Program-made: the position numbers and the translations under genes
Shown here: piece after piece, positions 35,761 through 37,608 of the stretch
How the letters are laid out: each line of letters opens with the position of its first letter
Position numbering within the stretch: position 1 is the stretch's first letter
Notes under the pieces: generated by a model
The model's input: only the letters and a program-made list of their open reading frames with translations
What the model was told of the DNA's origin: nothing
Databases searched by the model: none
Assembly: GCA_037045355.1 (NCBI GenBank)
Contig: JBAOHO010000013.1
Location: 271,443 to 335,442, forward strand
DNA: 64,000 bases
Direction of reading: 5' to 3'
Origin: Candidatus Nanopelagicales bacterium
GTDB lineage: Bacteria > Actinomycetota > Actinomycetes > S36-B12 > GCA-2699445

Positions 35761-37608
35761 ATGACCATTCCCGGTTTGGAGAACCCGCCGACCAAGAACA
35801 AGAAGTTGCTCGAGTGGGTCGAAGAGGCCGCCGAACTCACGCAGCCGGACCGCGTCGTGTGGTGCGACGGCTCGCGATGCCGAGTGGAACCGACTGACCG
35901 CAGGAGATGGTCGAGTCGGGCACCTTCATCCGTCTCAACCCCGAGAAGCGCCCCAACTCGTTCCTCGCGCGTTCGCAACCCGTCCGACGTCGCCCGCGTC
36001 GAGGACCGCACCTTCATCTGCTCGCTGCGATGAAGAGGATGCCGGCCCGACCAACAACTGGATGGATCCCGCCGAGATGCGGGCGACCCTCAAGCGGCTG
36101 TTCGCCGGCTGCATGCGCGGGCGCACGATGTACGTGATCCCCTTCTCGATGGGTCCGCTTGGGGTCGCGCATCTCCCAGCTGGGCGTCGAGATCACGGAC
36201 TCGCCCTACGTCGTGGTCAACATGCGGATCATGACTCGCATGGGCCAGGCCGGCCCTCGACGTGATCGGCGAGGACGGCGACTTCGTGCCGGCGCTGCAC
36301 TCGTGTCGGCTACCCGCTGATCGATGCCGAGGGCAACCGCCGCGACGACGTCGCTTGGCCGTGCAACGACGACCAAGTACATCGTCCACTTCCCGGAGAC
36401 CCGCGAGATCTGGTCTTACGGCTCCGGTTACGGCGGCAACGCCCTGCTGGGCAAGAAGTGCTTCGCGCTGCGTATCGCATCGGCCATGGCCCGCGACGAG
36501 GGCTGGATGGCCGAGCACATGCTCGATCCTCAAGCTCACCGCGCCCGGACGGCGACGTGAAGTACCTGACGGCGGCCTTCCCGTCGGCTTGCGGCAAGAC
36601 CAACCTGGCCATGCTCGAGCCGACGTGTGCCGGGCTGGAAGGTCGAGACCGTCGGCGACGACATCGCCTGGATGCGGTACGGCGATGATGGTCGGCTGTA
36701 CGCCATCAACCCCGAAGCCGGCTTCTTCGGCGTCGCGCCGGGCACGGGCATGCATACGAACGCCAACGCGATCCGCTCCCTGTGAGGGCAACTGCATCTT
36801 CACCAACGTCGCGCTGACCGACGACGGCGACGTGTGGTGGGAGGGCATGACGGAGGACGCACCGAGCGCACCTCATCGACTGGAAGGGCAACGACTGGAC
36901 ACCGGAGTCCGATGCCCCCTCCAGCCACCCGAACGCCCGGTTCACCGCGCCGGCCTGCGCAGTGCCCGTCCATCGCGCCCAACTGGGAGGATCCCGCCGG
37001 GTGTCCCGATCTCGGCGATCCTGTTCGGGGGCCGACGCGCTACCAACGTGCCGCTGGTCACCGAGGCGCTGCGACTGGGATCACGGCGTGTTCCTGGGTG
37101 CGACGATCGCCTCGGAGCAGACCGCGGCGGCGGAGGGCACAGTCGGCGGCCCTGCGTCGCGACCCCTTCGCCATGCTGCCGTTCTGCGGCTACAACATGG
37201 CCGACTACTGGGGTCACTGGCTGAAGATCGGCGAGATGACCGATGCCGACAAGCTGCCCAAGGTCTACCAGGTCAACTGGTTCCGCAAGGACGACGACGG
37301 CAAGTTCCTGTGGCCGGGCTTCGGCGACAACTCACGCGTGCTCGTCGTGGATCATCGAGCGGGTCGAGGGCGGCACCGAAGCCGAGCAGACGGCGATCGG
37401 TGGCCGACCGAAGGATGGCGACCTCTACCTCGAGGGTCTCGACCTCACCGATGAGCAGGTTGCCGAGCTGTTCGCGGTCGATCCGAAGTCCTGGCTGGCC
37501 GAAGCCGACCTCACCGAGGAGTACTTCGCGAAGTTCGGCGACAAGGTTCCGGCGAAGTTGCAGGAGGAACTCACCGCCCTGCGGGAGCGCCTCCGCGCCT
37601 CTGAGTGA
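35761..37608 (+). pseudogene. pckG: phosphoenolpyruvate carboxykinase (GTP), disrupted by 18 single-base +1 insertions
   Basis: The full-length PEPCK-GTP sequence is recoverable by stepping +1 at 18 sites. Motifs: [65 protein letters not shown]. 1848-18 = 1830 nt = 610 codons. Confidence 0.9.

Follow-up and report, generated by a model that had tools for sequence, protein, structure and literature searches.

Bacterial indel spectra favour deletions and slippage at repeats, and young pseudogenes usually carry one or two lesions. In sequence records, the typical errors of a long-read consensus reside in homopolymers, and deletions are among them. A further source of broken reading frames has been described for long-read assemblies, where the collapse of two alleles gives rise, close to allelic variants, to indel errors and to frameshifts that are only apparent (PMC8445201). 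Here, we analysed a window of 64,000 nt (the whole stretch of DNA under study) in which the gene for phosphoenolpyruvate carboxykinase, pckG, is recognisable from end to end and yet is shifted in frame again and again, always in the same direction. Most probably, this frameshift pattern is not biological.

Results

The pckG gene and its locus

The gene was delimited as follows.

35761..37608, + strand: pckG (GTP-dependent phosphoenolpyruvate carboxykinase), 1848 nt, that is, 1830 nt plus 18 surplus bases

As written, pckG is without an intact open reading frame. In a three-frame translation the PckG sequence runs through frames 0, 1, 2, 0 and so on in 18 shifts, all of them +1, so that the uninterrupted frame of a PckG protein is broken in the window by 18 +1 steps. 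Removal of the 18 bases leaves 1830 nt which encode a full-length product of 609 amino acids plus stop. The restored PckG covers both domains of the family completely (PEPCK_N, PF17297, E 4e-106, profile 1-218 of 218; PEPCK_GTP, PF00821, E 2e-173, profile 1-357 of 357), and it matches the structures 4wiu and 4r43 of Mycobacterium tuberculosis PckG (Rv0211) end to end (residues 2-605, E about 5e-281). The gene belongs to the PEPCK family only once the 18 bases are removed; the size of the restored enzyme, which the original prediction had described as normal at 1830 nt, was confirmed.

The gene resides at the position of its orthologues, with aroA-rsgA upstream on the opposite strand and a gene for a 434-aa protein followed by a DUF2516 gene downstream, and the order is the same in the eight close relatives introduced below. 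The window has a GC content of 65.6% and is actinobacterial DNA. Within the species-representative set the closest named genome is that of an uncultured Micrococcales MAG, whose PckG is only 90% identical, while near-identical DNA is found in wastewater and other metagenome assemblies. L004 (SRR28161545), for example, matches the window at 100% over 1.6 kb from position 37373 onwards, and SRR14932501 and SRR14932560 are further candidate samples with such DNA. The downstream 434-aa gene (37612-38916, + strand) starts 1 nt past the pckG stop codon and has no Pfam match; it is kept in all close relatives and is missing at this position in L096 and L097. Between this gene and the DUF2516 gene lies a segment of about 140 bp (38947-39107) that does not align to most of the close relatives and is present in L001. 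Three Logan contigs stop at 38991, and the segment is an indel polymorphism.

Comparison with related sequences

A protein search with the restored PckG identified eight independent metagenome contigs (L007-L014; ENA, JGI and NCBI, several samples) which carry an intact 1830-nt pckG and encode intact 609-aa proteins of 96% identity. These close relatives are 96-97% identical to the window in pckG and >99% identical across most of the flanking DNA. Four more distant orthologues with 85-87% nucleotide identity served as outgroups. All full-length relatives compared, eight close and four outgroup, possess an intact pckG of 609-611 aa in the same synteny. Alignment of the window with the close relatives by MAFFT revealed exactly 18 window-only single bases in pckG and no window deletion, and not a single window-only insertion in the 300-bp flanks of the gene. 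All 18 bases are missing from the four outgroup orthologues too. With equal chances for insertion and deletion, 18 gains in 18 events would have a probability of 2^-18. Thus, the original prediction of 18 single-base +1 gains with no deletions was borne out by the three-frame translation as well as by the alignments to the eight close relatives and the four outgroups. The comparison of the orthologous locus, which it had proposed, yielded relatives that are intact and lack all 18 bases, and when the alignment was searched for a mixture of deletions, insertions and nonsense changes, which it had named as evidence against its reading, only gains were found.

Six independent short contigs encode a protein identical to that of the downstream 434-aa gene. 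Two of these (L002 and L003, both covering the 3' end) reach back into pckG, and the last surplus base (37343) is missing in both. All six contigs end inside the last 430 nt of pckG, which fits an assembly-graph bubble at pckG in several samples. The window pckG allele itself had no match in two JGI metagenome DNA scans, and exact-product look-ups with two of the frameshifted pckG fragments gave none either. A scan of genome contigs for a frameshifted pckG copy returned only relatives of <=90% identity, a result in which such a copy could have ranked out; likewise, a protein search with a pckG fragment was uninformative, as it gave only matches of 89% identity or less.

The surplus bases

The sites of the surplus bases were taken from the alignment to the close relatives, and some placements are ambiguous by 1-3 nt. 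All are on the + strand; the surplus base is given in brackets within its context.

35874, + strand: surplus G, CTC[G]CGA, after codon position 2
35900, + strand: surplus G, ACC[G]CAG, after codon position 3
35976 (C) or 35975 (G), + strand: TCG[C]AAC; TCG in close relatives, TCC in outgroups, both bases in tandem in the window
36030, + strand: surplus A, GCG[A]TGA, giving an immediate TGA in the old frame
36157, + strand: surplus G, TCC[G]CTT
36250, + strand: surplus C, AGG[C]CGG, the sole run-extending insertion of the 18
36301..36304, + strand: one surplus base, T at 36301 or 36303/4, within CAC TCGT GTC; AGT in close relatives, TCG/TCC in outgroups, placement ambiguous
36371, + strand: surplus G, GAC[G]ACC
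36525, + strand: surplus G, CTC[G]ATC
36543, + strand: surplus G, CGC[G]CCC
36624, + strand: surplus C, CGA[C]GTG
36785, + strand: surplus A, GTG[A]GGG, turning a conserved TGG (Trp) into an in-frame TGA
36868, + strand: surplus G, AGC[G]CAC
36957 (G) or 36956 (T), + strand: GCC T G CG; TCG in close relatives, GCG in outgroups, both first bases in tandem in the window
37002, + strand: surplus T, GGG[T]GTC
37070, + strand: surplus T, CGC[T]GCG
37147 (C) or 37148 (G), + strand: CGG[C]GGC
37343, + strand: surplus C, GCT[C]GTC, missing in L002 and L003 as well

The positions proposed originally from hand tracing all lie within 0-13 nt of these corrected ones, while their exact places did not hold, the largest deviation being 36170, which is really 36157. 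That two sites create an immediate TGA was confirmed (36030 and 36785 in corrected coordinates), as was the view that most surplus bases lie outside homopolymers, since 17 of the 18 are not run extensions. In contrast, the proposed parsing of nearly all sites as intact codon, one base, intact codon was not upheld: the insertion points fall after codon positions 1, 2 and 3 in numbers of 4/7/7, and the parse is an artefact of free placement.

The inserted bases (eight G, five C, three T and two A) are compatible with the genome composition. In 17 of 18 cases the inserted base is unlike both of its neighbours, while random insertion would give about 9-10 such cases (simulated P 0.0002-0.001). The spacing of the insertions is more even than expected, with a coefficient of variation of 0.56 versus 0.95 for random placement (P about 0.006). 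At four insertions (35975/6, 36302/3, 36956/7 and 37147/8) the base of the close relatives and that of the outgroups stand in tandem. The inserted base equals the outgroup state at the adjoining site in 7/18 cases versus 3.2-3.7 expected (P 0.03-0.06), and it can be read as a synonymous third-position alternative in 12/18 versus 7.4-8.2 expected (P 0.02-0.06). A separate tandem-allele test (P about 1e-4) is partly circular, as the alignment itself can create the 'unique' site, and was not relied on. For at least 11 of the 18 insertions there is no known allele that would explain a doubled polymorphic site, and in a proximity test the insertions lie no closer to visible allelic differences than do random positions. 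A shared motif, a frameshift signal or a methylation-type motif was not seen around the 18 sites.

Long-read homopolymer consensus error was also considered for pckG and rejected, only one of the 18 bases being in, or extending, a run.

Features bearing on recoding

The gene might be taken as functional if it were decoded through 18 recoding events, by programmed +1 frameshifting, four-base decoding or removal of bases from the transcript. In favour of such a reading, the restored frame is conserved and free of stops over its full length, the window allele shows purifying selection overall, and an immediate TGA is present at two sites, as at prfB. However, none of the 18 sites occurs in any of the 12 related sequences, including strains that are >99% identical in the flanking genes, and the signal of purifying selection stems from changes shared with the outgroups and is hence older than the insertions. 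There is no common slippery or hungry codon, in agreement with the original prediction; the 18 four-base contexts are all different and occur in all three codon phases. The old frame remains open for 33-921 nt at 16/18 sites, with an immediate stop only at the other two. Homopolymer tracts suited to transcriptional slippage are lacking, with no long A or T run at any insertion site. A Shine-Dalgarno-like stimulator at a fixed distance was absent from the 18-nt upstream strings when inspected by eye, GGAGG-like strings occurring at about 3/18 sites and at varying distances. Scans for tRNA genes and Rfam families, which covered the window only, returned none. At an efficiency of 50% per site the yield would be 0.5^18, or about 4e-6. 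To our knowledge, base-deletion editing is not known in bacteria, and 18 frameshift sites per gene is a number that we have not seen reported for any bacterium. A shared slippery codon with stop, conservation and a stimulator, the hallmarks of a programmed +1 site, are all absent from pckG. We regard a functional gene of this kind as highly improbable.

A diverged allele in the same stretch

The region of pckG that carries the insertions differs from the close relatives by substitutions as well.

35827..37372, + strand: diverged, earlier-branching natural pckG allele, with 38-45 substitutions, depending on the alignment, that no close relative has

All 18 insertions fall within this stretch. 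Compared to the close relatives, 39 window-only sites were counted in 35827-37372 versus a single one in the 2168 bp of rsgA-aroA, and none in the 397-bp intergenic region or in the 900 bp downstream of pckG. The substitutions unseen in the close relatives are distributed over the three codon positions as 11/5/23, and 23 are synonymous. Most of the allele's states (39/45, 87%) are common to the outgroups, and the residues of the window PckG allele are common states among 117 homologues. Close relatives and outgroups are separated by 49 fixed differences; here the window agrees with the close relatives 35 times and with the outgroups 13 times, and the two kinds of site are interspersed. Judged by these selection-shaped sites, common residues, outgroup-shared states and interspersed fixed differences, the window allele is genuine, earlier-branching and shaped by purifying selection.

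Six substitutions in the stretch are found in the window only (35827, 35880, 35915, 36096, 36399 and 37372). All six are non-synonymous, and five are at positions that are invariant in all eight other sequences. The initial description of pckG as intact in every respect apart from its insertions was therefore too generous, the gene being a diverged allele with six non-synonymous substitutions of its own. In total, the window's own branch comprises 18 insertions, 6 error-like substitutions and no deletion in 1.5 kb, corresponding to about 1.6% error-like change.

The remainder of the window

About 52 kb of the remaining window, for which two or more relatives were available, served as a background. 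The private changes in this DNA amount to 34 substitutions (0.065%) and six indel events, namely one 2-bp intergenic insertion (+AG, 54559-60) and five 1-bp frameshifts in genes.

29333: private -1 frameshift in a G7 run of a cytochrome P450 gene, compared to 2-3 independent relatives
34076: private +G in the last codons of aroA, about 9 nt before the stop, absent from 6 relatives
41885: private +T frameshift in a SHOCT-domain gene, compared to 2-3 independent relatives
55151: private +C frameshift in a DUF2017 gene, no homopolymer, compared to 2-3 independent relatives
55909: private +G frameshift in a Prok-JAB (Mec-like) gene beside cysM, compared to 2-3 independent relatives

The claim that the neighbouring reading frames are uninterrupted was thus contradicted by aroA directly upstream and by four further private 1-bp frameshifts in the window. 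Four of these five indels are of the homopolymer type, versus one of the 18 inside pckG. The data suggest that the record carries a low general indel error of mostly homopolymer type, at about 1 per 10 kb; relative to this background the indels of pckG are enriched about 100-fold and are different in kind. In a segment-based codon-model map, pckG was the only densely fragmented gene of the window. A GC3/codon-model frame trace over the whole window was too noisy, while the segment-based version flagged the other frameshifts, which were later confirmed by DNA alignment.

The +G at 34076 erases the aroA stop and creates an ORF of 764 aa (33069-35363, - strand) with EPSP synthase and RsgA GTPase domains. 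The relatives encode aroA (430 aa) and rsgA separately, and the fusion ORF is probably an artefact. On the - strand at 19742-21182, abutting coding segments (19775-20080 and 20070-21047) lie in different frames, which might reflect another frameshift or two overlapping genes.

Two clusters of private substitutions are free of insertions (30774-31104, 8 in 330 bp; 53015-53785, 13 in about 770 bp). They probably represent other strain-variable or recombined stretches, and they indicate that divergence by itself does not bring insertions.

The window further contains many short tandem repeats with a 21-bp period (31499-31674, 35364-35460, 52976-53086, 2294-2371 and 16694-16750). The array at 31499-31674 comprises 8.4 copies at the 3' end of an M20 peptidase gene, exceeding its counterpart in the relatives by 84 bp; the array at 35364-35460 is located directly upstream of pckG and differs in copy number among strains. 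A 7-bp tandem repeat, CCTGACA, is present in 13.9 copies at 61389-61485, with several small indel differences among relatives.

Discussion

Taken together, our analysis makes it likely that the 18 surplus bases are errors of the sequence record which arose during the reconstruction of a strain-variable stretch, and that the pckG gene of the organism is an ordinary one. An error of the record is favoured by the absence of the 18 bases from all relatives, their confinement to the diverged stretch, the excess of error-like changes and the absence of a recoding signal, and the coincidence of these errors with a diverged allele points to reconstruction in particular. The five private 1-bp frameshifts in other genes suggest that the record has indel errors in general. 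Most probably, in a metagenome assembly such as the presumed source, pckG is a strain-variable stretch of an uncultured actinobacterium known only from metagenomes, and the flanks represent the common sequence of co-occurring strains. The assembler would then have taken, or merged in, a rarer earlier-branching allele from about 35827 to 37372. Consensus formation or polishing of this poorly supported, mixed stretch may have resulted in 18 extra and 6 miscalled bases, and a few polymorphic positions may have been written with their two alleles consecutively. The pipeline step that produced the bases is one that we infer. The tandem alleles at four sites, together with the matches to outgroup states and to synonymous alternatives, lend modest support to an artefact of this type.

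Doubling of polymorphic sites was also considered as the sole mechanism and rejected: only 7/18 inserted bases match a known alternative state, compared to 87% of the unique substitutions, and several insertions would imply impossible alleles, such as TGA for the conserved Trp at 36785. It was retained as a partial contributor only, one that would explain both the bases unlike their neighbours and the absence of deletions. The explanation by a reconstruction artefact is incomplete in that most insertions have no matching allele, as a group they lie no nearer to variant sites than expected, and the spacing is over-even, a feature not obviously predicted by an error process. The 17 of 18 bases unlike their neighbours and the lack of deletions argue against the typical long-read consensus error. 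Insertion-type long-read errors, as first put forward, hence fit only in part, given that 17/18 do not lengthen a homopolymer and that the insertions are spaced in a non-random manner.

Alternatively, a naturally diverged allele may have received the bases after assembly, by in-silico editing or a fault in data handling, for example if the sequence had been mutated on purpose for a test. This would account for insertions being the only change and all residing in one ORF, and for a random codon phase (4/7/7). The over-even spacing (P about 0.006) and the avoidance of both neighbours at 17/18 sites (P <= 0.001) are typical of hand-picked or constrained 'random' choice, and are unexpected from sequencing chemistry or natural mutation. 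In addition, neither the frameshifted fragments nor the allele were found on record in the JGI metagenome DNA scans and exact-product look-ups. However, editing leaves unexplained the six window-only non-synonymous substitutions of the same stretch, the somewhat higher than expected number of inserted bases in agreement with real alternative alleles, and the confinement of the insertions to the diverged stretch rather than the whole ORF (0.837^18 = 0.04). We rate it as less likely than a reconstruction artefact, but as a substantial rival.

The insertions might also be real, in which case pckG would be a very recent pseudogene that originated when +1 insertions accumulated locally in an unusual burst. 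In favour of this, no PckG can be made from the sequence as it stands, the private 1-bp frameshifts in five other genes of the window could point to a strain in the course of gene loss, and each of the six window-derived substitutions is non-synonymous, in keeping with a release from selection. On the other hand, indels and substitutions on the window branch stand at 18:6, while neutral decay gives far more substitutions. Gains and losses stand at 18:0, with 17/18 gains not extending runs, against the deletion and slippage bias of bacteria. No such burst is seen in the adjoining intergenic DNA or the neighbouring genes, and we know of no mutagenic process confined to about 1.5 kb that would yield evenly spaced, non-templated single-base gains. 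A burst of this kind appears doubtful at best. A decaying pseudogene in the usual sense was considered separately and rejected, as mixed indels, nonsense changes and a relaxed pattern are lacking and the other differences of pckG are outgroup-shared and selection-shaped.

Finally, 18 +1 recoding events without a shared signal, arisen in one strain within <1% flanking divergence, would be extraordinary, and we give this next to no credence. The order in which the original prediction had ranked the explanations, artefact before unusual recent mutation before recoding, is supported by the lack of the bases in 12/12 relatives, the missing frameshift signal and the confined excess.

If the bases were real and pckG were working, this would constitute an unprecedented bacterial recoding system. 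Under the favoured reading as a reconstruction artefact, the case calls for caution, as a strain-variable gene in metagenome-derived genomes can mimic a densely frameshifted pseudogene in a manner unlike ordinary homopolymer error. As a consequence of such a misreading, gluconeogenesis would wrongly be dropped from the metabolic reconstruction of the organism. Similarly, at the further suspect frameshifts in the window, of which there are at least five, annotation pipelines would call pseudogenes or gene fusions.

Comparison with known systems

In Mycobacterium leprae, pseudogene decay likewise leaves recognisable genes without an intact ORF. Decay of that type proceeds by mixed deletions, insertions, nonsense changes and many substitutions, whereas pckG exhibits 18 gains, no losses and 6 lineage-specific substitutions. 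Programmed +1 frameshifting, as in prfB/RF2, in Euplotes and at multiple sites in mitochondria, shares with pckG a conserved protein that is readable only by a +1 move, and in pckG a TGA follows directly past the shift point at 2/18 sites. The known +1 sites, however, are conserved and centre on a defined codon, slippery or hungry, that is mostly accompanied by a stop and a stimulator, while those of pckG have 18 unrelated contexts and zero conservation. A third counterpart is provided by the collapsed alleles of Trypanosoma brucei Lister 427 (PMC8445201). The pckG case differs from it in having only 1-base gains, almost none in homopolymers and over-evenly spaced, and in that the mixing of haplotypes is presumed here. 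In both, indel errors and truncated ORFs occur where haplotypes differ while the flanks are clean, the orthologues or phased alleles are intact, and some sites display both alleles in tandem.
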